Assembly (NCBI GenBank): GCA_040902205.1
Contig: JBBDXR010000035.1
Span: 272 to 64,271, forward strand
Reading direction: 5' to 3'
From: Anaerolineales bacterium
GTDB taxonomy: Bacteria > Chloroflexota > Anaerolineae > Anaerolineales > UBA11579
DNA: 64,000 nt
Shown: positions 1 through 26,739 of the stretch, one piece after another
How positions within the stretch are numbered: position 1 is the first letter of the stretch
Layout: every line of letters begins with the position of its first letter
The notes under the pieces: generated by a model
What the model was told of the DNA's origin: nothing
Database searches by the model: none
What the model saw: the letters and a program-made list of their open reading frames with translations, nothing else
Program-made: the position numbers and the translations under genes

Positions 1-704
<704 letters not shown>

Positions 705-830
705 GGATGGATCGCTCCTTGGGATAGGCGGATTCGGCGACGGATCTCCGTCGCCAGCGATTATAGCTGATGCCTTCCACTCCCCAATTTTGCGCCCTGG
801 GCTGCGACTCCGGCTCTTGTATAGCCTCTG

Positions 831-861
831 GCTACTCTGTATAATCAATTGACAGAGTAGC
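831..861. promoter_or_regulatory. Perfect 10-bp inverted repeat (GCTACTCTGT-N11-ACAGAGTAGC) in the divergent mutase/ATPase intergenic region
   Basis: Arms at 831-840 and 852-861 read directly; TATAAT (839-844) and TTGACA (849-854) hexamers overlap it. Confidence 0.5.
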
Positions 862-997
862 TGCAGCTCTCCGCTGTTGGCGCACAGGGGAACATCGCCG
901 CCAACGCCCCTCATCTTCGCCCGATAGCCCTATCGAACCTGATTTGCTGAGCTAAACATCCCAGCCACGTTGCCTGGGATCGGCGAGGAGAGAATTC

Positions 998-3634
998 ATG
1001 CCTAAACCTAAAAAACCCACCACGGTCGTGGTTACCGGGGACTTTACCGCCAACTGGTATCTGGCCAAAGTACGCCAATCCGACAGCGTGGTGGTGGGCG
1101 GCCGCGCCGATAAGGTGACGCGGGCCTGCTGGCAGCGTGGCAGCAGCGCCCTGCTGGCCGACATCATCGAGACGATTGCGGCCGAATTGCAGCAAGGCGG
1201 CCATGCGCCGTTCTCCATCCTGCAGACCGCCGCGCCGCGCGGGCAGTTGGAGGCTTCCACCTCCGGCGCCCGCTTCGACCAGTCCTACACGATCTGGTCG
1301 CTGTTCAAATACGGTGAAAAACCACCGCTAGACAAAGAGAAGGCAGCCTGGCGCATCAAAGAATTCCTGGGCCTGGATCGGGTGGCAAACACGGGACCGG
1401 AGTGGCAAAAAGTGATCGACGATACAGCCGATGCGAATCTGGTCATTCTGGATGATGGCGACCAGGGATTTCGCGACCGGCCGGAGCTGTGGCCTCTGGC
1501 CATTAAGACTGGAGCGACAAACCGGCCCTGGATCCTGCTTAGGATCTCGGGCACCGTGGCTCAAGGCCCTCTGTGGGATCACCTGCACGGGGAATTTGCC
1601 GACCGCCTAATCGTGGTCACCAGCGCGGATGACTTGCGGCTGACCGAGGTGCAGATCAGCCGGGAGCTATCCTGGGAACGCACCTCCCAGGATCTGTTCT
1701 GGGAACTCGTCCACAATCCGCGCATCAATGCGCTGTCAAGTTGTGCGCATGTCATCGTCCTCTTCGGCGAGGCCGGCGCGGTCTTGCTGTCACGCGAAAA
1801 GAATTCATCGACCTGCTTGCTCTACTTCGATCCTAAAGTGATCGAGGGGATGTGGGAACAAAACTATCCGGGCGGCATGATCGGTTATACAACCTGCCTC
1901 ACAGCCGGGATCTCACGCCAGCTGATGATGTCTCCGGCCAGCCCGGATATCGGCCAAGGGGTTCAGTCGGGATTGACTGCTTTGCGCGCCCTTCACATGG
2001 AAGGTTATGGGGAACGAGGCGCAAGCACCTCGGAAGTCCAACTCCGCTTCCCAATTGGACTCATTGCATCCACATTGGCGAAAGGCGAAAAGCCCTTCGC
2101 GGTGGCCGAAGTTCAGGACCCATTGCGCTTCATCAAGCAACCGGAGAATGGCAGCGAGAAACCCCTGACCGAGGGCGTTTGGACGATCCTGCAGGACCGC
2201 TACAAGGAGAACCTCGAGCGGGTGGCCGAGCAAATCGTCCTGGAAGGGCCGGAGGTTTCTTTGCCGGATGTCCCCCTGGGTCAATTCGGCAACCTGCTCA
2301 CCGTCGATCGCGATGAGATCGAAAGCTTCCGCTGCCTTCGCTCCCTGGTGAGCGAATACCATCGGCTTGGGCAGCAAAAGCGCCCACTTTCTATCGCCGT
2401 TTTCGGCTCGCCCGGCTCGGGCAAATCCTTCGGCATCATCGAGGTGACCAATTCCGTGCTGCCGGGGCAGGTGGAGATCCGCGCGTTCAATCTGTCCCAA
2501 TTCAATTCCACCGAAGACCTGTTGGCGGCGTTCCACCAGGTCCGGGATATCGCGCTGGGCGGGAAGATCCCCCTTGTCTTCTGGGATGAATTCGATACCA
2601 CCTTCGAAGAGATGCCCCTGGGTTGGCTGCGCCACTTCCTGGTCCCCATGCAAGATGGCCGTTTCCAGGAAGGCCAGATCAACCACCCACTGGGCCGCTG
2701 CATTTTTGTGTTTGCCGGAGGGACGTGCGGCAGTATGGCTTCCTTTGGAGGCGGGTTCAATCAGGATGCCTTCCGTGCGGCAAAAGGGCCTGACTTCGTC
2801 AGCCGTCTTAAGGGCTACGTCAATATCCTGGGACCCAATCCGGTGGACTGCGGCGAGGATAAACCCACCCACGACCCTTACTATCTGATCCGCCGGGCCA
2901 TTCTCTTGCGGCAGATAATGAAGCGCAATGCGCCGCAACTGTTCGAAAGAAGCAACGGGAAAGACCAACTGAATATCGACCGGGGCGTGCTGCGCGCCTT
3001 GCTGCATACCCGCGAGTACCGGCACGGCGTGCGCTCCATTGAATCGATCATCGCCATGAGCCAGCTGGCAGGCAAAAGTGTTTTCGCCCGTTCCAGCTTG
3101 CCGGCCGAGTCACAGTTGGACCTGCACGTGGATGGGCTGGACTTCCTGGCCTTGGTGCGGCAGATCGAATTGGACGGCGCGGTCCTCGAGAACCTGGCCG
3201 AGGCGGCCCACGAAATCTATCGCAAGGGGGTGACGGGGCGCCACCAGAAAACAGATACCGCGGTGCTGGCTTATGCGGATTTGCCAGAGGAGTCCAAGGA
3301 ACAAAACCGCAGGAACATCCGCGATATCCCCCTCAAATTGGCTCGAGCAGGCTACGCCATGATCCCGGCACGCAGCAACGAACGGCCCTTCAACTTCCCC
3401 GGGGTTGCACTGGAGATGCTCTCCCAAGCGGAGCATGAACGTTGGATGCGCGCCAAGCTGGCAGACGGCTGGATCCACGCGGCAGAATCCAGCAGGGAAA
3501 AGAAGGAGAACCGCGGCCTGCTGCCTTGGGACCAGCTCCCAGAAGATGAAAAGGAAAAGGAACGGGACATGGTACGCGGTATACCGGTAATTCTGGCGCG
3601 GGCGGGATACGCAATCGTGAAATCGCACGGGTAG
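998..3634 (+). CDS. 878-aa P-loop (AAA+-like) ATPase with an N-terminal degenerate ribokinase/RfaE-like domain and C-terminal tandem RyR-type repeats
   Basis: Walker A GSPGSGKS, Walker B FWDEFD. C-terminus LAEAAHE...YADLPEESKEQNR and LSQAEHERWMRAKLADGW...LLPWDQLPEDEKEKER matches the RyR repeat pattern. GAGGAG RBS. Confidence 0.85.
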   Translation: MPKPKKPTTVVVTGDFTANWYLAKVRQSDSVVVGGRADKVTRACWQRGSSALLADIIETIAAELQQGGHAPFSILQTAAPRGQLEASTSGARFDQSYTIWSLFKYGEKPPLDKEKAAWRIKEFLGLDRVANTGPEWQKVIDDTADANLVILDDGDQGFRDRPELWPLAIKTGATNRPWILLRISGTVAQGPLWDHLHGEFADRLIVVTSADDLRLTEVQISRELSWERTSQDLFWELVHNPRINALSSCAHVIVLFGEAGAVLLSREKNSSTCLLYFDPKVIEGMWEQNYPGGMIGYTTCLTAGISRQLMMSPASPDIGQGVQSGLTALRALHMEGYGERGASTSEVQLRFPIGLIASTLAKGEKPFAVAEVQDPLRFIKQPENGSEKPLTEGVWTILQDRYKENLERVAEQIVLEGPEVSLPDVPLGQFGNLLTVDRDEIESFRCLRSLVSEYHRLGQQKRPLSIAVFGSPGSGKSFGIIEVTNSVLPGQVEIRAFNLSQFNSTEDLLAAFHQVRDIALGGKIPLVFWDEFDTTFEEMPLGWLRHFLVPMQDGRFQEGQINHPLGRCIFVFAGGTCGSMASFGGGFNQDAFRAAKGPDFVSRLKGYVNILGPNPVDCGEDKPTHDPYYLIRRAILLRQIMKRNAPQLFERSNGKDQLNIDRGVLRALLHTREYRHGVRSIESIIAMSQLAGKSVFARSSLPAESQLDLHVDGLDFLALVRQIELDGAVLENLAEAAHEIYRKGVTGRHQKTDTAVLAYADLPEESKEQNRRNIRDIPLKLARAGYAMIPARSNERPFNFPGVALEMLSQAEHERWMRAKLADGWIHAAESSREKKENRGLLPWDQLPEDEKEKERDMVRGIPVILARAGYAIVKSHG

Positions 3635-3680
3635 GTCTGCCGGCCGGAAAGGGATCAGAGACGACTTGACCTCGTTGGGG

Positions 3681-3923
3681 ATGACCGGGCCGGGGTACGG
3701 GCCTAACCTCGTTAGCGCCACACAGAGCGAGCGGGGATTGGAGGTGCGCTGCCCTGCGTGCCAACATCAATTCGCCATTGGCAGGGAAAGCCTGGGCAAA
3801 GAGGTCGATTGCCCTCAAACGTATCAACTTAGGGCTTACGGCGGCGAAAAAGGGCTGATGCGCTGCGGGGCGAGATTGAAGGTCAGCCCTTGTGTGAAGG
3901 CCGCCGGCTTAACCGCCCTCTAG
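3681..3923 (+). CDS. Possible small zinc-ribbon protein
   Basis: CPAC...CPQ...CG motifs; fills the gap between two same-strand genes. Start is uncertain. Confidence 0.35.
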   Translation: MTGPGYGPNLVSATQSERGLEVRCPACQHQFAIGRESLGKEVDCPQTYQLRAYGGEKGLMRCGARLKVSPCVKAAGLTAL

Positions 3924-3929
3924 GGGTTC

Positions 3930-4556
3930 ATGGGCCTCGATTACAGCTATCTACTCTATTTCAAACGCGAGCGGCTCTGGGACGCGCTGCAGGGGCTGGC
4001 CGGCTTCACCAGGCCCAGCAAAAAGCAGACCGTAGTGGTCTTTCCCGATCACATTCTGCTGCTGCCTTTGGAGCCCTGGTATTCGGAGCACAGGATGGTG
4101 AAGTTCGATGCGCCGCAATTCCCGTTCACGATCAGCATCTATTTCCAGGAGGATGAGGCCATTAGGGAATACGTGATGCGCAACTTCCGTGAGCACTACG
4201 AAGAGATGTCCAAGGAGAGCCCGCTAGGGTTCCCCATCGGCATCATTTACTTGACGGTCTACCGTGATCTGCAGGCGTTCAACAAGGATTTCGATAACAC
4301 CGACTTGGTGTTGATGGAATTCGGTACGACCGGTACGCGCATGAGTCTGCTTTTCGCCGAATCCAGGTCCATCCGGAAGCGGTTCGAAGGACTATTGGAG
4401 GCGCACCAGGGGGTTTATGGAATCCTCAATTTGGAGGGACCGGCGAGATTGATCTGGTGCAGCGGGCACAGGGTGGATTACGAGTTGCCCGACGCGTTCA
4501 TGAAGCCCGAAGAAATCGGCAGCTACTTACTCCAGGCTTCATCCCCGCGGAGGTAA
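3930..4556 (+). CDS. Hypothetical protein (208 aa)
   Basis: Long ORF in operon-like spacing with the downstream glycosylase; no motif recognised. Confidence 0.75.
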   Translation: MGLDYSYLLYFKRERLWDALQGLAGFTRPSKKQTVVVFPDHILLLPLEPWYSEHRMVKFDAPQFPFTISIYFQEDEAIREYVMRNFREHYEEMSKESPLGFPIGIIYLTVYRDLQAFNKDFDNTDLVLMEFGTTGTRMSLLFAESRSIRKRFEGLLEAHQGVYGILNLEGPARLIWCSGHRVDYELPDAFMKPEEIGSYLLQASSPRR

Positions 4557-4562
4557 AGAGAG

Positions 4563-5393
4563 ATGTTCGAATTACCGGAGTATCAGGTTCTGGTCCGCCA
4601 AATAAACGCTACCCTGGCGGGGAAGATTATCCGGCAGGCAGCGCTAAGCAATGTGACCCACAAGTTCGTCTGGCATAACCTGACGAGCAATGAATTCGGG
4701 CAGCTTTGCAAAGGGAAAAAGATCGGGAAGGCGAACGCACGCGGCCGCTGGTTGACCGTCCCGGTTGAGCCGGGATATGTGCTGGTGGTGGGTGAATGTG
4801 GAGGCAAGCTCGTCTACCAGGAGCAGGCAACCAAGCGGCCATCCAAATTTCACCTGCTTATCGAATTCGAGGATGGATCTTTCCTGTTTGGCGTAACGCA
4901 GATGTGGGGCGCCTACGACCTCTATCCGAAGGGTGAAGAAAAAAAACGCAAATACATCAAAGACATGCGCCCGACCCCGCTGGATAGGGCTTTCACGTTT
5001 AAATACTTCGGCGACTTGATGATTGAGGTCGCCGCTGAAAAGCGAACGAGCGCCAAGGGTCTGTTGACCCAGGCGCAATGGGTGCCTGGGCTGGGGAACG
5101 CGATCGCGCAGGACATCCTGTTCAAAGCTTGTCTGCACCCGCGGCACAATATAGCGAGCTTGGGAGCAAAACAGAAACGGGAGTTATACGATGCCATATT
5201 GGCCACCGTAAACGAGGTGATCAAGAAGGGTGGACGCTACGACGAATACGACCTGTTTGGCCAGCCTGGGCAATACGTCCGTCTCATGGATAAGCGGGCG
5301 GTGGGCCGCCCCTGCCCGCAGTGCGGCGCCAAGGTGGAGAAAATCGCCTACTTGGGCGGCGCATGTTATTTTTGCCCCCACTGCCAGGTTTAA
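4563..5393 (+). CDS. Fpg/Nei-family DNA glycosylase-like protein
   Basis: N-terminal xELPE motif (MFELPEY), H2TH region GLGNAIAQDILFKACLHP, C-terminal zinc finger CPQC...CPHC. Confidence 0.88.
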   Translation: MFELPEYQVLVRQINATLAGKIIRQAALSNVTHKFVWHNLTSNEFGQLCKGKKIGKANARGRWLTVPVEPGYVLVVGECGGKLVYQEQATKRPSKFHLLIEFEDGSFLFGVTQMWGAYDLYPKGEEKKRKYIKDMRPTPLDRAFTFKYFGDLMIEVAAEKRTSAKGLLTQAQWVPGLGNAIAQDILFKACLHPRHNIASLGAKQKRELYDAILATVNEVIKKGGRYDEYDLFGQPGQYVRLMDKRAVGRPCPQCGAKVEKIAYLGGACYFCPHCQV

Positions 5394-5421
5394 CTGGCGT
5401 GATAAAATCGCGTTTGCATAC

Positions 5422-5494
5422 GCTCTCATCGTCTAGTGGCCTAGGACGTGGCCCTCTCAAGGCCAAAACCGGGGTTCGACTCCCCGTGGGAGCA
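5422..5494 (+). tRNA. tRNA-Glu (anticodon CTC)
   Basis: Acceptor stem GCTCTCA/TGGGAGC, D-arm TAGTGGCCTAGGA, anticodon arm TGGCC-CTCTCAA-GGCCA, T-loop GGTTCGACTCC. CCA is not encoded. Confidence 0.96.
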
Positions 5495-5497
5495 TAC

Positions 5498-5534
5498 GCA
5501 AAAGAGGCGGAAAAGCAGAGGCTGCCTCTTTTGC
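5498..5534 (+). terminator. Hairpin/terminator after tRNA-Glu
   Basis: GCAAAAGAGGC ... GCCTCTTTTGC inverted repeat immediately 3' of the tRNA. Confidence 0.55.
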
Positions 5535-5596
5535 TATTGGAGTTGCTAGTCCGCTGCGCGGACAAATGCAACTCAGTCAAAGCCGGTGGTTTTTTT

Positions 5597-5818
5597 GTGG
5601 GCACGCTCAACGAGTTCGTCCAGGCCCGCATACCTCTACGCAACACGGACCAATTCACTCTCATGGCCGGCCTGTATCCGTATGTGGAGCCGAACTTCGG
5701 CCAGTCCTGGGGAATCTTTGCAGTCGGGGCGCTGATCGGCGCCTTGCCGGCGGGGATCATTTACACCCGGCTACAAGATTACATCGTGAGCGGTCTGACT
5801 TAAGGAGCGGTGAACGGT
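5597..5818 (+). pseudogene. C-terminal remnant of a MalG-type sugar ABC permease
   Basis: GTLNEFVQARIPLRNTDQFTLMAGLY...[36 protein letters not shown] resembles the MalG C-terminus (Q.Y.V.GLT.GAVKG). It has an in-frame TAA at 5801-5803 and no N-terminal half. Confidence 0.8.
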
Positions 5819-5866
5819 TCGTTGTGTAATTGCTTCTTTCTATATCCATAGAAACCCCGAGGCCAA

Positions 5867-7504
5867 ATGCAAGACAACATTTTTGGAACGCTGATCACTG
5901 ATGAACTCCAGCTTCTTCATCACCGTTCGCACCACAGCGGATTGCAGCACAACTATGAGATCACCCCGCAGCGTCCAATCCCCGGCCGGCCCGTATCCTT
6001 ATTTGCCACTGTAGGACCCGAGTTGGACGCTGAAGAGGTGATTTGCTATTACACGCTGGATGGAAGCCAACCCACCGATTCCCTGAATAGCATTGGTTCG
6101 GTTGTGCGCATGATTAAATTGACACAGATTAGTGTGGATTGGGACACGCTCAAATGGGGTTATGTAGAGACGTGGCGGGGGGAGATTCCGGCGCAACCAG
6201 AAGGCACCTTTGTGCGATACCGCATCGTCTCTACGAAAGGCGGCCAGAATACTGCAGTTGCCGATTGGCCCGACCCCAAGTATCGCCAGGAAATGGCCAC
6301 GCGAGCTCATTTTAGTGGTCTTCCTTCGCCCGCCATTGTTCCCACGGACCCGATGATAGGAAAGACATTCGCGTACCACGTCAACCGCTATCGGGTTCCT
6401 CAGTGGGCTCAGGAAGCCGTCATTTACCAAATCTTTGCGGATCGCTTCCATCCCGGTGAAGGACGGGAATGGACTCAAACGACCAATCTGAGAGATTTTT
6501 GTGGCGGCACTCTTTGGGGAATCCGCGATAGGTTAGATTACGTGCAGGAACTGGGCGCCACAGCCATTTGGTTGAGCCCTACCTGGCCCAGCACCAGCTA
6601 CCATGGTTATGACATCACCGATTACAAAGCGGTGAGCCAGCGCTTGGGCGGGATGGAGGCGATGAAAGCATTGGTGAAAGAGGCTCATGCGCGCGGGGTC
6701 AAAATCCTGCTGGACTTGGTAGCCAACCACACCTCTAGCGAGCACCCCTATTTCCGGGAAGCTTATGAAAAAGTTGACAGCCCTTATCGGAAGCATTTTC
6801 TCTTCGACCAATCCGAAATCGGGTATCGCACTTTCTTTGGAGTACGCAGCATGCCGCAAGTCAACCTCAGCAATGAAGCCGCCCGCAAATGGATGATCGA
6901 TATCGCCCGCTTTTGGCTTGACGACTTTGGGGTAGATGGCTTCCGGCTTGACCATGCCAATGGTCCCGGTCCTGAATTCTGGGCAGAGTTCCAACTGGCC
7001 TGCAAGCAGGTCAACTCGCAAAGCTTTTGTTTCGGCGAGGTGGTTGAGCCGCCGAGCGATTACAAGCGTTACGCCGGCCGCGTGGACGGATTGCTGGATT
7101 TTGGCTTCAACGACTCCATCCGCCGAGCCTATGGCTACGGTAGCACGACCAAGGAAGCGTTTGACCTGTTCCTGAAGAGGCACCTGGAATTCTTTGCCGA
7201 TTCCGGATTACTGTTGCCCACTTTTATCGATAATCACGATCTAGTCCGGTTTCTCCATATTGCAGGTGAGGACAAATCGAAATTGCGGGCGGCAGCGGAG
7301 TTGCAGTTTGCACTGCCGGGTCCGCCTATCGTATATTATGGAACCGAAGTGGGCATGACCGAACGAATGGTGGAAGATCAGAGTGACCAACTGGTGGGTT
7401 GCCGCGCTCCTATGGTCTGGAATGAGGAACAGGATCAAGAATTGTTTGCCTTCTACCAGTCACTGATCGCGGCTCGACGAGAGGCTAAGCCTTGGCTGCA
7501 ATGA
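5867..7504 (+). CDS. GH13 alpha-amylase family (neopullulanase/cyclomaltodextrinase-like)
   Basis: Conserved regions DLVANH, GFRLDHA, GEVV, FIDNHD; YQIFADRF; YYGTEVGM. Confidence 0.93.
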   Translation: MQDNIFGTLITDELQLLHHRSHHSGLQHNYEITPQRPIPGRPVSLFATVGPELDAEEVICYYTLDGSQPTDSLNSIGSVVRMIKLTQISVDWDTLKWGYVETWRGEIPAQPEGTFVRYRIVSTKGGQNTAVADWPDPKYRQEMATRAHFSGLPSPAIVPTDPMIGKTFAYHVNRYRVPQWAQEAVIYQIFADRFHPGEGREWTQTTNLRDFCGGTLWGIRDRLDYVQELGATAIWLSPTWPSTSYHGYDITDYKAVSQRLGGMEAMKALVKEAHARGVKILLDLVANHTSSEHPYFREAYEKVDSPYRKHFLFDQSEIGYRTFFGVRSMPQVNLSNEAARKWMIDIARFWLDDFGVDGFRLDHANGPGPEFWAEFQLACKQVNSQSFCFGEVVEPPSDYKRYAGRVDGLLDFGFNDSIRRAYGYGSTTKEAFDLFLKRHLEFFADSGLLLPTFIDNHDLVRFLHIAGEDKSKLRAAAELQFALPGPPIVYYGTEVGMTERMVEDQSDQLVGCRAPMVWNEEQDQELFAFYQSLIAARREAKPWLQ

Positions 7505-20033: not shown

Positions 20034-21959
20034 CTAGAGTTTTGCGTACTGATCCACGCGCTTGCCAACCACATTAAGGCTATCGGCCCAAAACTTCTTT
20101 TCGCGGATATTGATGTCGAAGCGGGCGGCCAGGGTGGCGGCGTCTCCCAGACCTGTGCTGCCCAGCAGGTTGCGGTAGTCGGTGGTGAATTCTTTGCCGC
20201 GCTGCTGGTAGATGGCATACAGGCCAGTGCCGAACAACAAGCCGAAGGCGTACGGGTAATTGTAGAACGAGAGGTCCGTTCTGTAGTAATGCGGCTTCCA
20301 GGTCCACATGTACTTATGAAGGTATTGCGGATCTAAGCCCTCGCCATAAGTCTGCTTCTGCGCGTCCTCCATGATTGCGCAGAAATCATCAGCCGAGAGT
20401 TCGGCCTTGGCGCGGCGCTCGAAGACTTCCTTCTCGAAGATGAAGCGCGAGGCGATGTCCACGATGACCTGCGAGGAGTTCTGCAGATCGTTCTCCAGGA
20501 TGGCCAGCTGTTCTGCCTTGGAGTTGGCCAGTTTCAGCGAAGCCTCGGTGACGATCGTCTCGCACATGATGGAGGCGGTCTCGGCCAAAGTCAAGGAAGT
20601 GATGGCCTGCAGGAAAGTCTTGCCGACCAGGCACCAGTTATGGTAGGCGTGCCCTAGCTCGTGCGCAACGGTTCCCAATTGTTCGAGCGAGCCGTTGAAG
20701 TTGGCCAGGATGCGCGACTCGTCCACGCCGGGCACTTCCATGCAGAAGGCGCCGCCGCTTTTACCATCACGCATTTCTGCGTCAATCCAGCTATTGTCGA
20801 AAGCCCGTTTGGCCAGGTCGTGCAGATCCTCCGAGAAGGTGCCGAACTGCTCCAGGATGAAGTCGCGCGTCTGCTCGAACGTGTAGACCGTGTCGGTCTT
20901 ACCCATGGGAGCAAATACGTCGTACCAAGGGAGCTGCTTCTTGCCGAGCTTCTTGGCCTTGGCCTGGTAATAGCGCCGGAACATCGGGAAGGAGTCGTGG
21001 ATGGCTTCCATGAGCGCGTCCAGGGTCTGGCGGTCGATGCGCGCCGTGTCGATGGAGGCATGCAGCGCGTCCTTGCGGCCGCGGCGCTTGTCAATCGTAT
21101 TGGTTTCTCCCTTTACTCCATTCAGGGCTGCCGCGTAAGTCTCTTTATTCTTCTCCCAAACTTCCAGTTCGGCCTCGTAGCCGCGCTTGCGCGTATCGCC
21201 ATCGGAGTGGTTGCGCAGGTTGATGAGGGCCGGCATAGGCATCCTTAGCTTTTTGCCGTCCACCGCGATCTCGGCGCTGAGTTGCGAAGTGACGGTGTTC
21301 TGCAGCTTGCTCCACGCATTGGCGCCACTCAGGGTGAGGTCAGCGGCCAGGTCTTCCTCGCCTGCGCTCATCAAGTATTGGGATTGCTCGTGAGTCTCCT
21401 TCAGGTAGAAGGCGTGGTCCTCCAGCGTTCCCGGCTTGGCGATCAGCTCGACCAACTGGCTCCCCATCGTGCCGACCCAGGCGCGGATCGCCGCCTCGTG
21501 CTTGCGCAAGCGCACTCCATGCTGTTCGAGTTCCGACTCGATGCGGCGTGCCTCCGTATTGAAAGAATCCGTGCTGGTGAAGGAATACGAATAGGCATTC
21601 AGAGTGAAGTAAAGGCGCAAGACCGCGTTGCGTTTGTCCAGGAGGTCGGTGAGTACTCGGGCCAGCTCGTCCATGCTGGTTTGCGCCGGGCCGGCTTCGT
21701 TCTTCTGGATCTTGTGCCTCTGCAGGAAGGAGTCGATCTCATCCAATTGCATCTTCAGGTCCTGGACTGCGGCCTCGAACTGGTCGCTGTTCAGGCCGGG
21801 ATAGACATTGCTCAGGTCCCAGCGCGGCACATTGCCAAGGTTCTTGGCTTGTACCTTGGCTGGTTTCACTGCTTTAGCTGCATTCTTGGCAGGCTTAATT
21901 CTGACCTTTTTGGCAGCCTTGGCTGGTTTGCTGGCTTTCTTGCTCTTCGTCTTGGCCAT
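20034..21959 (-). CDS. pepF: M3B oligoendopeptidase F with a Lys/Ala-rich N-terminal extension
   Basis: PRWDLSNVY, GKSGGAFC, HELGHAYH zinc motif, LAETAS, FYNYPYAFG. Confidence 0.94.
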   Translation of the reverse strand: MAKTKSKKASKPAKAAKKVRIKPAKNAAKAVKPAKVQAKNLGNVPRWDLSNVYPGLNSDQFEAAVQDLKMQLDEIDSFLQRHKIQKNEAGPAQTSMDELARVLTDLLDKRNAVLRLYFTLNAYSYSFTSTDSFNTEARRIESELEQHGVRLRKHEAAIRAWVGTMGSQLVELIAKPGTLEDHAFYLKETHEQSQYLMSAGEEDLAADLTLSGANAWSKLQNTVTSQLSAEIAVDGKKLRMPMPALINLRNHSDGDTRKRGYEAELEVWEKNKETYAAALNGVKGETNTIDKRRGRKDALHASIDTARIDRQTLDALMEAIHDSFPMFRRYYQAKAKKLGKKQLPWYDVFAPMGKTDTVYTFEQTRDFILEQFGTFSEDLHDLAKRAFDNSWIDAEMRDGKSGGAFCMEVPGVDESRILANFNGSLEQLGTVAHELGHAYHNWCLVGKTFLQAITSLTLAETASIMCETIVTEASLKLANSKAEQLAILENDLQNSSQVIVDIASRFIFEKEVFERRAKAELSADDFCAIMEDAQKQTYGEGLDPQYLHKYMWTWKPHYYRTDLSFYNYPYAFGLLFGTGLYAIYQQRGKEFTTDYRNLLGSTGLGDAATLAARFDINIREKKFWADSLNVVGKRVDQYAKL

Positions 21960-22014: not shown

Positions 22015-22317
22015 CTAGATCTGGGGAGCAGCGAGCCTCTTTTCAAGGATATAGGCTGCGGTGAAGGCCGCCCAATCGCCAGGGCTGCCTGCTGCCTTGA
22101 AGGCTTTGGAACTCTGATCGAGGGCTTCGGACAGCTCGTCCACGTCCGGTTGGCTGCCCAGCAAACCGGCGAGCCCGCTATCCAGCAGATACTCGGCATA
22201 CCACGCTGCCCATTGCTCGTCGCGTTCGCCGCCCAGTTCCACGCTTTCGAAATCGTGGTGGGTAGCCTGGGCGCGGCGCAACAGGCCGGCAAGCTTGTCT
22301 TGGACCAGATCAGCCAT
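22015..22317 (-). CDS. Hypothetical protein (100 aa)
   Basis: Compact ORF with a plausible helical sequence (DEQWAAWYAEYLL); no family recognised. Confidence 0.65.
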   Translation of the reverse strand: MADLVQDKLAGLLRRAQATHHDFESVELGGERDEQWAAWYAEYLLDSGLAGLLGSQPDVDELSEALDQSSKAFKAAGSPGDWAAFTAAYILEKRLAAPQI

Positions 22318-22344: not shown

Positions 22345-23484
22345 TTACCCAATTAATCGTAGTCCATCGACCCCAAAACTCCAGCCCCTTGCTGGACGTG
22401 TTGGCTCCCAAGGCAAAGCCATAACCATGGATTTGGCCAGGATTAAAAGGAGCGGACCCCCCCGGAACCCAGGGAGCCGGGCTGACTTCGTCCCAGCGGA
22501 TCGAAATAGCACCCAGTAATCAACGCTTATTTCGCTAGTTGTGAAGAACGCGGCAAGCACCGATTCGCTGCCGCTATCGAACCGGAGGGTAACTTCCTCA
22601 CCGGCTCGACCGGCGCGGTACCAGAAAGTGATGCCCTGCGCGGCGCTCCAGTCCTGAGAATCGAGCGGGCGGGCCCAATATCCCCATTCTTGTAAGGCAA
22701 GCTGCCACCGGATGTACAAGGAGCTTCCCCCTTCCACGAATAGAGCGGAATCCACGTCAAAGGTAACAGCCGAGCCATCGCTGGTCACCCCTTCGAAAGT
22801 ACCCGGCGCATTGCCATCAATCGTGGCGATTCCGTCCTTTGGGAGTACAGGTTGACCATATGCATACGCATCCTCTATGGCTTCTCCTTCACGATCCCTT
22901 CCAACCAGCCGGCGACCTGCAGGTAGCCCACTTCGGGACCCGTGAGTTCACCCAGATTCATGGGCTCGGAGACTTTGCACGCACGCGGTGGAGCTCCGTA
23001 GAAAGTCTGATAAGCAAGGGTGCTGCCAGTGCTGGCCCCGATCAGACGTACCGCTATTCGAAAACGGTAGCGAGTGATGCCGCTGCCGGATAAAAACTCA
23101 CAGAGCTCAATTGCCTCTTTCTTTATTGGTCCAACGCAGGCCACCAACTGGGCATTCTCCAGATTGAGTGGACGCCACTCATCGTTGATCCGATCATCCC
23201 AGGAGCTATGCTCTCCGGGTGGATGGAGGATAACAATGGGGTGGATGCCGCTGCCCGCGTAAGCGGCCGCGCCTTCGATGGGCGTGGCCTCTGTCCAGAT
23301 CTCGCCGCCTCCCTCGTCTCTGCCAAGGCACGCGGGAGCCAGGATCAGCCGAACATGGTCAAGCGTAACGGGGCTCTGCGGAGCCTTGACCAGGTGTGGC
23401 ACCCGCAGATGGAGCAGAGCAGGCGAGAAGGGAGACGCTGAGCAGCAAGACAAGAAAAGCATGAAGCGGCCTAAGCATGGGCAT
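22345..23484 (-). pseudogene. Frameshifted lipoprotein: 4-Cys paralogue #4 fused to a CBM11-like carbohydrate-binding domain
   Basis: The lipoprotein signal (MPMLRPLHAFLVLLLSVSLLAC, ATG 23484) is in a different frame from the core domain (22875-23350). After a 1-nt slip near 22890 the frame continues IVEGEAIEDAYAYG...DWSAAQGITFWY...; two more slips (about 22505 and 22372) restore SIRWDEVSPAPW...FNPGQIHGYGF...EFWVDGLRL. Confidence 0.72.
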
Positions 23485-23491
23485 AAGGATC

Positions 23492-24073
23492 CTAAGGTTG
23501 GGCTGGAACTGCCTGGCCCTCCACGTATTCGCTAAGCCAGCCTTCAATGTCCCGGTAGGATGGCCGGGTTCCATAGAGGATCCTGGTTTCGTTTTCCTCA
23601 CTGCTTCGGCATTGGCGTGCATTTGCGCCCTGGAATCTTTGGCTGGCCACTTCTCGCCCGGTGCGCGCCTCCAGGATGCGAGCGAGGAGATCGGCACGGT
23701 AACGCGTGATATTAGGCCCGGTAATGAACTCGCACTCTTCAAGGATAGTGTCCTGCCACTCGAGGCAAACCACCAATTGCGCTTCCTGCGCTGAAACGGG
23801 GAGCCAGTTTTCGGGTATGTGATTGCTCCACCCGGATATCTCACCTTCTATTGAAGCAAGCACAATGGGATGAGGACCGGATCCATCGTAAGCCGCTGAC
23901 CCCGGGCTGCTTCCGCCGGCGCATACGGGCGCCAGGGCGGAGTAAAGATTCTGACGTGGATCGGATGGCCCTGTTGAGCTGGTCGCACATGAGACAGCGA
24001 AGAGCAGGATAGCCGCCGAGGGTCGCAGCCAGCCAGACAACTTTGAGGATGAACTGGGGAGCTGGATGCTCAT
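23492..24073 (-). CDS. Lipoprotein, unrecognised 4-Cys family, paralogue #3
   Basis: Lipobox-like FAVSC; shared motif HP..W..IPE.W.P...QLVVC...EEC...I.RY...EARTG...F.G..R.C...E...WL. Confidence 0.82.
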   Translation of the reverse strand: MSIQLPSSSSKLSGWLRPSAAILLFAVSCATSSTGPSDPRQNLYSALAPVCAGGSSPGSAAYDGSGPHPIVLASIEGEISGWSNHIPENWLPVSAQEAQLVVCLEWQDTILEECEFITGPNITRYRADLLARILEARTGREVASQRFQGANARQCRSSEENETRILYGTRPSYRDIEGWLSEYVEGQAVPAQP

Positions 24074-24318
24074 CAACACCTCCCGGCACGACCAAAGAAG
24101 CGGCAAACGCGCCAAACCGCGGCCCGGCTGGCGTATCTTAGGTAACTATATGTCTATAGAGAAGTAATACTCAGTGGATAATGTCCCTGGCGAACAAGGA
24201 CATTTGTCCAGTCAGGCTTGGCTCGCTCTGTTTATCGAGCAAACCCCCTGTTAGGTCGGATCCGAACGACAAGAGTTCCCCATAGCGGGTTGTAGGCTCC
24301 TGCCGTATTGCTGCGCGA

Positions 24319-24876
24319 TCACTTTCGGGATTGTCCATCCAACTGGTATCGTATATACACTGACAGCCAACCCCACACTACTCCAGGGTCTACATGCTTC
24401 CCGGTGAGTTCGGTCACGCTGATGGCTTCGCTGTGACCACAATGACGTGGCTCGGATCCTATAAAGAAATTCCCACCAATCGGGAACCCGCTGCGGGCCT
24501 CCACAACATTCACTATCACTCGGTATTGGTAACGGATAATGCTCGGGCCGCCATAATAGTTACATTCCTCAATATTCTGTTTAAGTTCCGAGATGCAAGC
24601 CACTAGCTGCAGATCGTCGATTTCCTTCGGATACCACTCTTCGGGAATTGAAATGTTCAGGGGATGATTCTCGCCGGTTGGGTAGACAAGAATGTAGGGA
24701 TGAATCCCGCCCACTAAAGGAGCCGCCTGGTCCATTCCCTCACCTGTGGCCCGGCATATGCGGGAAAGCTCGGCCTGAGGGAATTGCGTGCGTGAAGAAC
24801 AGGAGGCTAAAGCGGCCGAGCAAGCGAGAATTACCATCCCGATAACAACTCGATGTGGCAATGTAGGTTTCCGCAT
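24319..24876 (-). CDS. Lipoprotein, unrecognised 4-Cys family, paralogue #2
   Basis: Lipobox LASC; same conserved motif set. Confidence 0.82.
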   Translation of the reverse strand: MRKPTLPHRVVIGMVILACSAALASCSSRTQFPQAELSRICRATGEGMDQAAPLVGGIHPYILVYPTGENHPLNISIPEEWYPKEIDDLQLVACISELKQNIEECNYYGGPSIIRYQYRVIVNVVEARSGFPIGGNFFIGSEPRHCGHSEAISVTELTGKHVDPGVVWGWLSVYIRYQLDGQSRK

Positions 24877-24896
24877 AGGTGGACCTCCGCGAAAGG

Positions 24897-25466
24897 CTAT
24901 TGCTGCTTTTCAGCGCTTGGGTAAACGAAAGAAGCGAGCCAATCCTTGATTTGAGGGAACGTGATCACCCGGCCGAACAGGGCCGTTAAGTTCGCTGGCT
25001 CGGTAAGTCCGCACTCTCTCGGTTCCGATCCTTGGAACACGCGCTCAGCTACCAGACGCCCCGATTGGGCTTCGATGATCTGAGCGCTGAGGTCGTATCG
25101 ATATCGGGCAATACTCCCTCCTCCCGTATACGAACAGGTTTGGATCATCACTTCGGAGCTTTCGAGGCAAGCCACCAGCTCCACCTGATCGGCGTCAGCT
25201 GGCTGCCATTCCGCAGGCATTTCGAGATTCCAGGGATGGGAGGCTCCCGAAGCATCCTCCAGAAAGATGGGATGGATCTCGGATCCCGCAAAGGCAGCCG
25301 CGGCCGGGTAAGCTTTTCCCTGGCAAACGCGATTTAGTTCCCGCTCAAGGGCGAGATTTTTCTGATAAGCGGCTCGACTACCGGGTATCTGGGTAAGTGC
25401 CCAAAGGAATAAAGCCACGCCGGGAACGCAAAAAGCGATAAGCGTCCACTTGCATCCCTTTGACAT
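24897..25466 (-). CDS. Membrane-anchored protein, unrecognised 4-Cys family, paralogue #1
   Basis: N-terminal TM/signal segment; same conserved motif set. Confidence 0.82.
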   Translation of the reverse strand: MSKGCKWTLIAFCVPGVALFLWALTQIPGSRAAYQKNLALERELNRVCQGKAYPAAAAFAGSEIHPIFLEDASGASHPWNLEMPAEWQPADADQVELVACLESSEVMIQTCSYTGGGSIARYRYDLSAQIIEAQSGRLVAERVFQGSEPRECGLTEPANLTALFGRVITFPQIKDWLASFVYPSAEKQQ

Positions 25467-25545
25467 AACCCCAATATAGAGATTACTTGCTGCAATTACT
25501 TAGTGGTCTATGTCCTCGACTGATGAGGTCATTTGTCCAGACCAG

Positions 25546-26739
25546 CTAATTACGCGCCATCAGTGCGGTGAAGTCCCTGCCTGTGGGCTGCTGGAAGACG
25601 CGCAATTCGAACTCCTGCGCAGTAGCCAGCAGGTGGTCGAAGATGCTGGCTTGGATAGCCTCATATTCTTCCCAAACGGTGGTGCTGGTGAAGGCGTAGA
25701 TCTCCAGCGGCAGGCCGCTGGGGCCGGGGTCCAGTTGGCGTACCATTACGGTCATGTCCTTGCGAATGTCGGGGCGGCTGTTGAGGTAGGCGACCACATA
25801 GGCCGTGAAGGCGCCGACATTGGTGAGCCGCGGCTTGGCCGGCGCGGTGGCAACCGGCTCGCCGCCTTTAGGCTCCCAACCGCGCTGCTCGATGTAGTCC
25901 TTGAGCAATGGCTTTTCTTTCAGCTTTTCCAGGTCTTCCTGGCTGCAAAAGCGGATGGTCTGGATGTCGATAAAGATGGAGCGCTTGATACGCCGCCCGC
26001 CAGATTGGCTCATGCCGCGCCAATTCTTGTAGGACACTTCCATCAGCTTGTGGGTGGGGATGACGGTGAAGGTCATGTCGAAATTTTGGATCTTGATGGT
26101 GTGCAGCGACATGTTGGTCACATCGCCATCCGCGTTGAAGCTGGGCACTTCGATCCAGTCGCCTTCCTTCACCAGATCGTTGGCCGCGATCTGCACACTG
26201 GCGACCAGCGAGAGAATGGTGTCCTGGAAGACGAGCAGTAAAACCGCGGTGAGCGCGCCCAGCCCGCTTAACAGCAGCACCGGCGATTCATCGGTGAATA
26301 GCGATACGCTAAGAATGACGCCGACGGCAATGAACAGGATCTTGACAAGGTCGAGGTACCCCTGGATGGCCACGCCGGAATACATAGTGCGGCTCTCGTA
26401 GATGAGGTTGAAGGCATTGAGCAACGAGTTGACAGTAAAGATGGATAGCCAAAGGATCAGGAATAGCAACCCTTTGCTCAGGATGATTTCAATGTCGGGC
26501 CAAAAATACGAGAAGTAGTAAATAATGAGCAGCGGGGCCAAGGTTGCCAGGCGGTAGGGACGCAGGTGCTTGACCAGGATGTCGTCCCATTGGTTGCGCG
26601 TGCGCGTGGTCAGATAGATCAGGCCGCGGGCCACGAAGAAGCGGGCGACCAGGTAGGCCAGCAGCGCGGCCGCCGAAACCGCCAGGGCGGCATTCTCGGC
26701 GCTGCTTTGCAGCCAGGCGATGAACGCGTCGAAGTTCAT
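25546..26739 (-). CDS. MscS-family mechanosensitive channel (YbdG-like)
   Basis: LSGLGALTAVLLLVFQDTILSLVAS, GDWIE.P...ADGDV, NWRGMSQSGGRRIKRS, LPLEIYAF. Confidence 0.93.
   Translation of the reverse strand: MNFDAFIAWLQSSAENAALAVSAAALLAYLVARFFVARGLIYLTTRTRNQWDDILVKHLRPYRLATLAPLLIIYYFSYFWPDIEIILSKGLLFLILWLSIFTVNSLLNAFNLIYESRTMYSGVAIQGYLDLVKILFIAVGVILSVSLFTDESPVLLLSGLGALTAVLLLVFQDTILSLVASVQIAANDLVKEGDWIEVPSFNADGDVTNMSLHTIKIQNFDMTFTVIPTHKLMEVSYKNWRGMSQSGGRRIKRSIFIDIQTIRFCSQEDLEKLKEKPLLKDYIEQRGWEPKGGEPVATAPAKPRLTNVGAFTAYVVAYLNSRPDIRKDMTVMVRQLDPGPSGLPLEIYAFTSTTVWEEYEAIQASIFDHLLATAQEFELRVFQQPTGRDFTALMARN

Follow-up and report, generated by a model that had tools for sequence, protein, structure and literature searches.

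A tandem array of diverged, membrane-tethered paralogues with an uncurated four-cysteine domain in an Anaerolineales bacterium

What could a row of small, strongly diverged, membrane-tethered proteins that belong to no named family be doing in the genome of an Anaerolineales bacterium? The question is raised by positions 22345 to 25466 of a 64,000-nucleotide stretch of DNA (contig JBBDXR010000035.1 of assembly GCA_040902205.1, phylum Chloroflexota), which is here called the window. A preliminary description, made from the sequence alone, had pointed to an array of paralogues with four conserved cysteines and had proposed a diversifying surface repertoire, such as ligand-binding modules, immunity-like proteins, or antigens facing phages or predators. 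Our own answer is a tentative one, in which our confidence stays a little short of even: the array may be an old cluster of surface-tethered, disulfide-braced paralogues that act as a non-catalytic binding or scaffold module.

The array comprises four consecutive open reading frames (ORFs) on the minus strand, at 22875 to 23462, 23492 to 24115, 24319 to 24876, and 24897 to 25466. We named them PAR1 to PAR4 in ascending coordinate order. Their full extents and contents are as follows.

22345 to 23484, minus strand: PAR1, a predicted pseudogene, delimited by three-frame translation and collinear alignment to an intact orthologue.
23492 to 24115, minus strand: PAR2, an intact ORF of 207 amino acids (aa) with the lipobox A-V-S-C and one 4-Cys domain.
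24319 to 24876, minus strand: PAR3, an intact 185-aa lipoprotein gene with the lipobox L-A-S-C26 and one 4-Cys domain.
24897 to 25466, minus strand: PAR4, intact, 189 aa, with one 4-Cys domain and an N-terminal hydrophobic anchor without a lipobox.

An M3 oligoendopeptidase gene (20034 to 21959, minus strand; 589 bits to TIGR02290) flanks the array on its downstream side and an MscS-like gene (25546 to 26739, minus strand) on its upstream side. The shared 4-Cys domain spans about 140 aa and occurs once in each copy. Alignment of PAR1 to PAR4 revealed 29 invariant columns over the whole extracytoplasmic domain, four of them cysteines. Pairwise BLASTP gave 30 to 41% identity at 80 to 110 bits, a similarity well above chance level. 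The four diverged paralogues of the preliminary description were thus borne out, and a profile made from the four copies matched exactly these four sites and no others across the host genome (2.46 Mb, 38 contigs, 92% complete). PAR4 scored 2.1e-90 against the family profile, and PAR2 probably starts at M15 (coordinate 24073). The lower guanine-plus-cytosine (GC) content ascribed to the block was found mainly at third codon positions (GC3 of 0.54 to 0.65, compared with 0.70 to 0.81 in the flanking genes), whereas overall GC was clearly below that of the flanks in PAR3 and PAR4 only.

PAR1 differed from the other three. In a three-frame translation, its lipoprotein signal (MPMLRPLHAFLVLLLSVSLLAC..., lipobox L-L-A-C) begins at an ATG at 23484 but is cut off by a stop near 23362. 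The 4-Cys domain lies in a different frame (approximately 23375 to 22875) and ends at the stop at 22875. It is followed by a remnant of a CBM11-like domain (approximately 22890 to 22345), which occupies two further frames and whose last residues return to an earlier one. The 147-aa ORF at 22345 to 22788 belongs to this remnant and is not itself a paralogue. Accordingly, the lowermost part of the array as first delimited (22345 to 22874) does not hold a fifth copy; it appears to be the decayed tail of PAR1. A related metagenome contig, L023, carries an intact orthologue of 401 aa (gene 6001 to 7206; P0087, also called L023_401). Its residues 17 to 57, 61 to 220, 217 to 345, and 347 to 391 are collinear with the successive pieces of PAR1, and to match it, the reading frame of PAR1 has to shift four times or more within 1.14 kb (near 23360, 22885, 22508, and 22373). 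Since the orthologue aligns collinearly to all of the pieces, we consider PAR1 a putative pseudogene of a lipoprotein with a 4-Cys and a CBM11-like domain, which would leave an array of three intact genes and one pseudogene where four genes had been described. The frameshifts are confined to PAR1, while the neighboring paralogues and flanking genes are intact; this argues for, but does not prove, real decay rather than assembly noise. Against the CBM_11 model (PF03425; Pfam cut-off of 27 bits), the remnant scored 20.7 bits (19.2 bits in the genome scan) and L023_401 scored 19.3 bits. Two relatives, L028_358 (32.3 bits) and P0041 (57.6 bits), passed the cut-off with the module directly after the 4-Cys domain, and P0041 aligned to the PAR1 remnant across a frame change.

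We compared the site with its counterparts in relatives, a comparison that bears on the proposed diversification. In the nearest genomes of the same genus with this layout (G022, G008, and G010), the MscS-like gene, a small gene of about 100 aa, and the M3 gene are directly adjacent, with no trace of the 4-Cys family between the MscS-like and M3 genes. In L023, whose M3 peptidase is 80% identical to that of the window, three family genes lie directly upstream of the small gene and the M3 gene: a 331-aa gene with 60% identity to PAR2, the 401-aa gene with 52% identity to PAR1, and a 172-aa gene with 45% identity to PAR3. On contig L027, one copy follows immediately on the MscS gene. The copy number at this site is therefore 0, 1, or 3 in relatives and 4, one of them broken, in the window, and the order of the genes differs between the window and L023. 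In a maximum-likelihood tree of 41 domains, PAR1, PAR2, and PAR3 grouped with the L023 genes with supports of 100/96, 100/100, and 98/92, respectively, and PAR4 joined a clade that contains P0062, P0155, and the L027 copy. A clade of all four window copies was never recovered. We detected no nucleotide similarity and no sign of gene conversion between PAR1 to PAR4, and recent duplication or gene conversion was rejected as their origin on the grounds of this lack of similarity and of a common clade.

Supported orthologues at the same site, together with the absence of a shared clade, argue that the cluster is old. The pattern is that of an array inherited, rearranged, and differentially lost, with copies being gained, lost, and, as it seems, decaying, and not that of a fast in-genome diversifier. 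The idea of a diversifying repertoire is not supported in its original wording, in that the rapid diversification within the genome that it implies does not fit this history; what stands of it is that the number and integrity of the copies vary among relatives. The copies nevertheless change faster than their surroundings at amino-acid-altering sites: nonsynonymous divergence (dN) from the orthologues was 0.38 to 0.61, compared with 0.146 for the M3 peptidase, or about 3 to 4 times faster. Synonymous divergence (dS) was saturated, so that dN/dS was uninformative as to positive selection. An independent tandem pair of family genes, in a different context, was found in an Anaerolineaceae metagenome-assembled genome (MAG). 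A site with zero, one, three, or four copies, one of which is decaying, amounts to a natural experiment on the turnover of a surface-protein repertoire.

PAR2 is without a C-terminal domain of about 150 aa that its L023 orthologue has. This extra cysteine-containing domain (pattern VSVYCGY.GESP…WRWGA…CEI.VE) was seen in the L023 orthologue (5045 to 6040) and in P0006, P0035, and P0036, and it gave no Pfam match.

The preliminary description could not assign the paralogues to a family, and neither could we from curated libraries. Pfam-A and NCBIfam returned nothing relevant for any of the four 4-Cys domains even at an E value of ≤1, PADLOC and PHROGs gave no match to the domain, and the family profile found nothing among PDB sequences at an E value of ≤10. 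A Pfam scan of 90 long family members had matches only in the fused partner domains. Assignment to a known curated family was rejected on these results, and a full-text search of the literature brought up no publication that deals with a family of this kind. Conversely, when 1.84 billion cluster representatives were searched exhaustively with the profile, the search (clusters at 50% identity from public genomes and metagenomes) retrieved 3,535 clusters at an E value of ≤1e-3, 2,117 of them at ≤1e-10. A word-indexed search gave 34 relatives, all unnamed or "hypothetical." Named hosts were an uncultured Anaerolineaceae MAG, an uncultured Dehalococcoidia MAG, and a Polyangiaceae MAG; a search for related loci with a narrow alignment yielded only two named loci, one from Anaerolineaceae and one from Dehalococcoidia. 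The family is thus widespread in environmental bacteria although absent from curated databases, and it extends over uncultured Chloroflexota, Myxococcota, and probably other phyla. Most genomes that carry it have a single copy. Its distribution is sparse: it occurs in 3 of the 23 species of the window's genus. Of 401 genomes sampled across the phylum, at least 9 carry it, with one copy each except in the window's genome; the counts from this sample are lower bounds, as up to eight candidates per genome were scored. Three other host genomes have one or two copies each.

We then considered where the proteins reside. A lipobox was accepted as [LVI][ASTVI][GAS]-C or the looser PROSITE pattern, together with a pathway gene in the genome. 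The signals of PAR3 (LASC), PAR2 (AVSC), and PAR1 (LLAC) qualify as bacterial lipoprotein signals, that of PAR2 by the PROSITE-type pattern only, and PAR4 has an uncleaved hydrophobic transmembrane anchor. The three lipoprotein signals and one membrane anchor reported earlier were therefore recovered. The host genome contains four VKOR-domain genes, three DsbA-like genes, and one Lgt gene (184 bits), and the host is therefore able to form extracytoplasmic disulfides and lipoproteins. With the Lgt gene and the lipoboxes as basis, lipid tethering is predicted for PAR1, PAR2, and PAR3. In the 20 architectures checked, the domain was preceded by a lipoprotein signal, by one transmembrane helix, or by three or five such helices; in the pentapeptide-repeat fusions with a lipoprotein signal (P0127, P0144, and P0153), there is no transmembrane helix between the repeats and the domain. 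By this topology, the 4-Cys domain lies consistently outside the membrane, which agrees with the surface location first suggested. We predict that a lipid or a transmembrane anchor tethers each PAR protein to the cytoplasmic membrane, on its outer side.

Structure prediction, one of the checks proposed with the preliminary description, gave very confident models. AlphaFold2 modeled full-length PAR3 from a 28-sequence alignment with a predicted local distance difference test score (pLDDT) of 91.7 and its mature domain (residues 30 to 180) from 89 sequences with a pLDDT of 95.5 and a predicted template modeling score (pTM) of 0.86. The model is a compact alpha/beta domain that opens with a helix and a short strand, continues with three short helices, a long beta-hairpin (91 to 105 and 113 to 126), and two further strands, and closes with a C-terminal helix. 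Fold comparison covered the PDB and BFVD. No match at an E value of ≤0.001 was obtained when the two models were searched with Foldseek against 350,542 PDB chains, and the viral folds of BFVD gave nothing. The best PDB matches were FlgT, HpaA, LptE, GNA1162, and CsgG, with E values of 0.02 to 0.5, template modeling (TM) scores of 0.13 to 0.34, and 9 to 19% identity. An LptE-like small lipoprotein fold was rejected, since LptE entries reached TM scores of 0.22 to 0.27 and E values of 0.07 to 0.6, compared with the criterion of a TM score of >0.5. Judged on the models, the likeness to FlgT, HpaA, and LptE appears to be one of resemblance and not of membership. Given thousands of clusters without a Pfam, NCBIfam, or PDB entry and a very confident predicted structure without a solved neighbor, the 4-Cys domain is a clear candidate both for entry as a new domain family and for an experimental structure.

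Conservation was computed over 179 domain sequences and is given in PAR3 numbering. The conserved columns of the family motif, with which the motif written in the preliminary description agrees, are C41, H59-P60, W81-x-P83, L91-V92-A93-C94, E103-x-C105, G110, R115-Y116, A127-x-T129-G130, G140, P143-R144-x-C146, E150, G159, and W170-L171. W81, L91, V92, C105, R115, C146, and G159 are conserved in at least 95% of the domains, and C41, C94, A51, Y107, G110, A127, T129, G130, P143, G45, and G140 in about 87 to 92%. H59 (81%) and E103 (70%) are less conserved. Of the 179 domains, 152 keep all four cysteines (positions 41, 94, 105, and 146 of PAR3). C105 and C146 each occur in about 98%, while C41 and C94 were lost together in 12 sequences, compared with about 2 expected if the losses were independent, a statistic inflated by the relatedness of the sequences. 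Because C41 and C94 vanish together and C105 and C146 are almost never lost, we infer that two disulfides brace the domain, a dispensable C41-C94 bond and a core C105-C146 bond. Conserved cysteine pairs, a topology outside the membrane, and oxidizing machinery in the host are what an extracytoplasmic disulfide-bonded domain calls for, and all three were present, with the bonds themselves predicted. E103 and R115 should be cross-strand neighbors in the hairpin, and most of the conserved set looks structural. The absence of a CxxC motif or any other catalytic signature from the conserved columns of the 179 domains, the conservation of His59 in only 81% of them, and the presence of the predicted E103/R115 pair among the best-kept polar residues suggest that the domain is non-catalytic.

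The architecture of longer family members points to what such a domain might do. The median extension is 59 residues before the domain and 4 after it. Fusion partners include pentapeptide repeats (15 of the 90 long members), SH3_3, Flg_new_2, WD40 and other beta-propellers, SGL, CBM_11, and a 3-keto-disaccharide-hydrolase-like (DUF1080-type) domain; some Polyangiaceae proteins have two copies of the 4-Cys domain. The combination with CBM11 recurs in P0041, L023_401, L028_358, and the window pseudogene. The frequency of fusions to binding modules suggests a role in binding a ligand or partner and, among the functions first proposed, favors the ligand-binding module. Single-domain members would bind a ligand or partner in the cell envelope or the environment, and the conserved set of W81, E103 and R115 (the predicted cross-strand neighbors), Y107, T129, and H59 is a candidate contact surface. 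In longer members, the 4-Cys domain could serve as a membrane-proximal base that holds C-terminal modules, such as CBM11-like glycan binders, SH3 domains, or beta-propellers, at the surface.

Several points weigh against this proposal. The function is argued from a single line of evidence, domain architecture. The nine sites on eight contigs that we surveyed revealed no ligand, partner, or conserved neighbor gene, and the Foldseek comparison (best E value of 0.02, TM score of ≤0.34) brought out no structural neighbor of known function. Most of the conserved residues may be structural, and both the residue patch and the disulfides are sequence-based predictions. Finally, the PAR1 frameshifts are known from the assembly, and an error there is not disproved.

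The survey of those nine sites, the window and eight others, bears most directly on the alternative that we regard as the strongest, namely, an array of orphan immunity or inhibitor proteins in which each tethered copy would neutralize a different secreted, envelope-targeting effector or hydrolase of competitors. Periplasmic immunity lipoproteins neutralize such effectors in other bacteria, and the window copies would suit this role in being tandem, divergent, and outward-facing, in varying in number among close relatives with one copy decaying, and in their atypical codon usage and rapid evolution. However, no toxin, effector, secretion-system, or recombinase gene adjoined the family genes at any of the nine sites, which share no neighbor family beyond the MscS and M3 synteny of the window's lineage. 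PADLOC and Pfam gave no immunity match, most family-bearing genomes have a single copy, and the domain is often part of long multidomain surface proteins that also carry CBM, SH3, propeller, or pentapeptide modules, an architecture that would be unusual in an immunity protein. We consider this explanation unlikely.

A second alternative, that the proteins are variable antigens or receptors that face phages or predators and are switched or replaced to escape recognition, has to be weighed together with a repeated element upstream of PAR4 and PAR2. The two copies in the window are as follows.

25497 to 25547, minus strand: copy 1, between the MscS-like stop codon and the PAR4 start; direct-repeat family D1.
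24168 to 24218, minus strand: copy 2, in the 203-bp gap between PAR3 and PAR2.

The element is about 51 nucleotides long, with the core CTGGACAAATG.CC...GGACAT..CCACT.AGTA, a palindrome (GGACA-N2-TGTCC), and 71% identity between the window copies. A third, related copy lies near 4894 in L023, about 150 nucleotides upstream of the first paralogue there. Rfam gave no match and the RNA fold z-scores were only -0.8 to -1.6, which is not significant; an RNA element was rejected for these reasons, which make a promoter or operator more likely. No sigma-70 consensus promoter was found. The element probably serves as a shared promoter or operator. If so, PAR4-PAR3 and PAR2-PAR1 would be two units under separate regulation. 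Such separate control would fit a set of variable antigens, as would the surface location and the differences in copy number and gene integrity among relatives. Nevertheless, recombination or gene conversion has nothing to act on in copies without nucleotide similarity, we found no switch of an invertible or repeat-based kind, old orthologues of the copies exist in a relative, and neither phage proteins (PHROGs) nor viral folds (BFVD) gave a match. Taken together with the missing recombinase, toxin, and secretion neighbors, this makes the antigen idea very unlikely.

Equally hard to sustain is the view that the domain is an enzyme or redox protein, in which cysteine, histidine, and glutamate would form an active site with, for instance, thiol-disulfide or hydrolytic activity on the envelope. 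It has in its favor the four highly conserved cysteines and the conserved His59, Glu103, Arg115, and Tyr107. On the other hand, there is neither a CxxC nor a known catalytic motif, C41 and C94 are jointly replaced by hydrophobic residues in 12 members, as for a structural disulfide, His59 is missing in about 19% of members, and the Pfam and PDB searches found no similarity to any enzyme in sequence or fold. Least likely of all is that the tethered domains are accessory subunits that modulate, or sense through, the MscS-like channel encoded directly upstream: in both the window and L027, a family gene does directly follow the channel gene and is read in the same direction, and in L023, family genes are near genes of the MscS type, but these three sites share ancestry and amount to a single observation, no MscS gene is near the other six family sites, and close relatives keep the MscS-like gene without any family copy.

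The surroundings of the array offered some further observations. Between it and the M3 gene lies a 100-aa gene without family assignment (22015 to 22317, minus strand), which is conserved in L014, L015, L018, and L023 at 45 to 61% identity and with the same placement before M3. The first 45 codons or so of the M3 gene encode a Lys/Ala/Pro-rich, histone H1-like N-terminal tail (MAKTKSKKASKPAKAAKKVRIKPAKNAAKAVKPAKVQAKN). It is also present in the L017 and L023 orthologues and lies outside the TIGR02290 model, whose match begins at residue 46. In L023, the array is preceded (1 to 4798) by two genes of the MscS family (654 and 912 aa) and by one for an unannotated membrane protein of 278 aa, and an MscL gene follows the M3 gene; genes for mechanosensitive channels thus cluster around the site.

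The proposal of an old cluster of binding or scaffold modules can be taken a step further, to one that we think doubtful as a whole. The 4-Cys module might represent a new fold class of membrane-tethered surface domain, and its paralogue clusters a set of specific binders that turns over by gain and loss. These would be receptors for glycans of the envelope or the environment, or else orphan immunity proteins that counter secreted effectors aimed at the envelope. If this were true, the modules would make up a new family of proteins for recognition or protection at the cell surface. Anaerolineae are abundant fermenters of sludge and sediment. In this poorly studied class, the 4-Cys protein is one of the few recognizable surface proteins, several of its relatives are linked to glycan-binding modules, and the identity of its ligand would inform how these bacteria interact with polymers, neighbors, or phages.

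How does the array compare with known systems? Arrays of immunity genes against polymorphic toxins or effectors differ from it in having a cognate toxin, effector, or secretion gene, none of which adjoined the window copies or the eight other sites. To LptE, FlgT, HpaA, GNA1162, and CsgG, the model is similar in kind, as a small, predicted lipid-anchored envelope protein with helices packed on an antiparallel sheet, and these weak matches are mostly non-catalytic binders, plugs, or scaffolds. The window proteins differ from them in that the structural matches are not significant and that Pfam matched none of them; moreover, the host, as we presume, probably lacks the lipopolysaccharide and outer-membrane machinery that LptE-type proteins serve. 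As regards CBM11, P0041 and L028_358 pass the Pfam cut-off, and the window remnant aligns to both and to the tail of L023_401 (56% identity). Unlike CBM11 on glycoside hydrolases, the module is here part of a lipoprotein, and the window copy is below the cut-off and frameshifted. Another parallel is the tandem paralogous lipoprotein cluster of Staphylococcus aureus, the lpl genes (DUF576). In both, several diverged, membrane-tethered surface lipoprotein paralogues are arranged head to tail at a single site in the chromosome, the copy number differs among close relatives, and pseudogenes occur. The window array has no sequence relationship to lpl (no Pfam family matched), a different fold, and a host in the Chloroflexota, and its copies are old lineages with orthologues in a relative and not recent expansions. 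Nothing as yet points to a surprising mechanism. A cluster of paralogous surface lipoproteins that varies in copy number is a known kind of locus; the domain family of which it is built is uncurated and has no solved structural relative.

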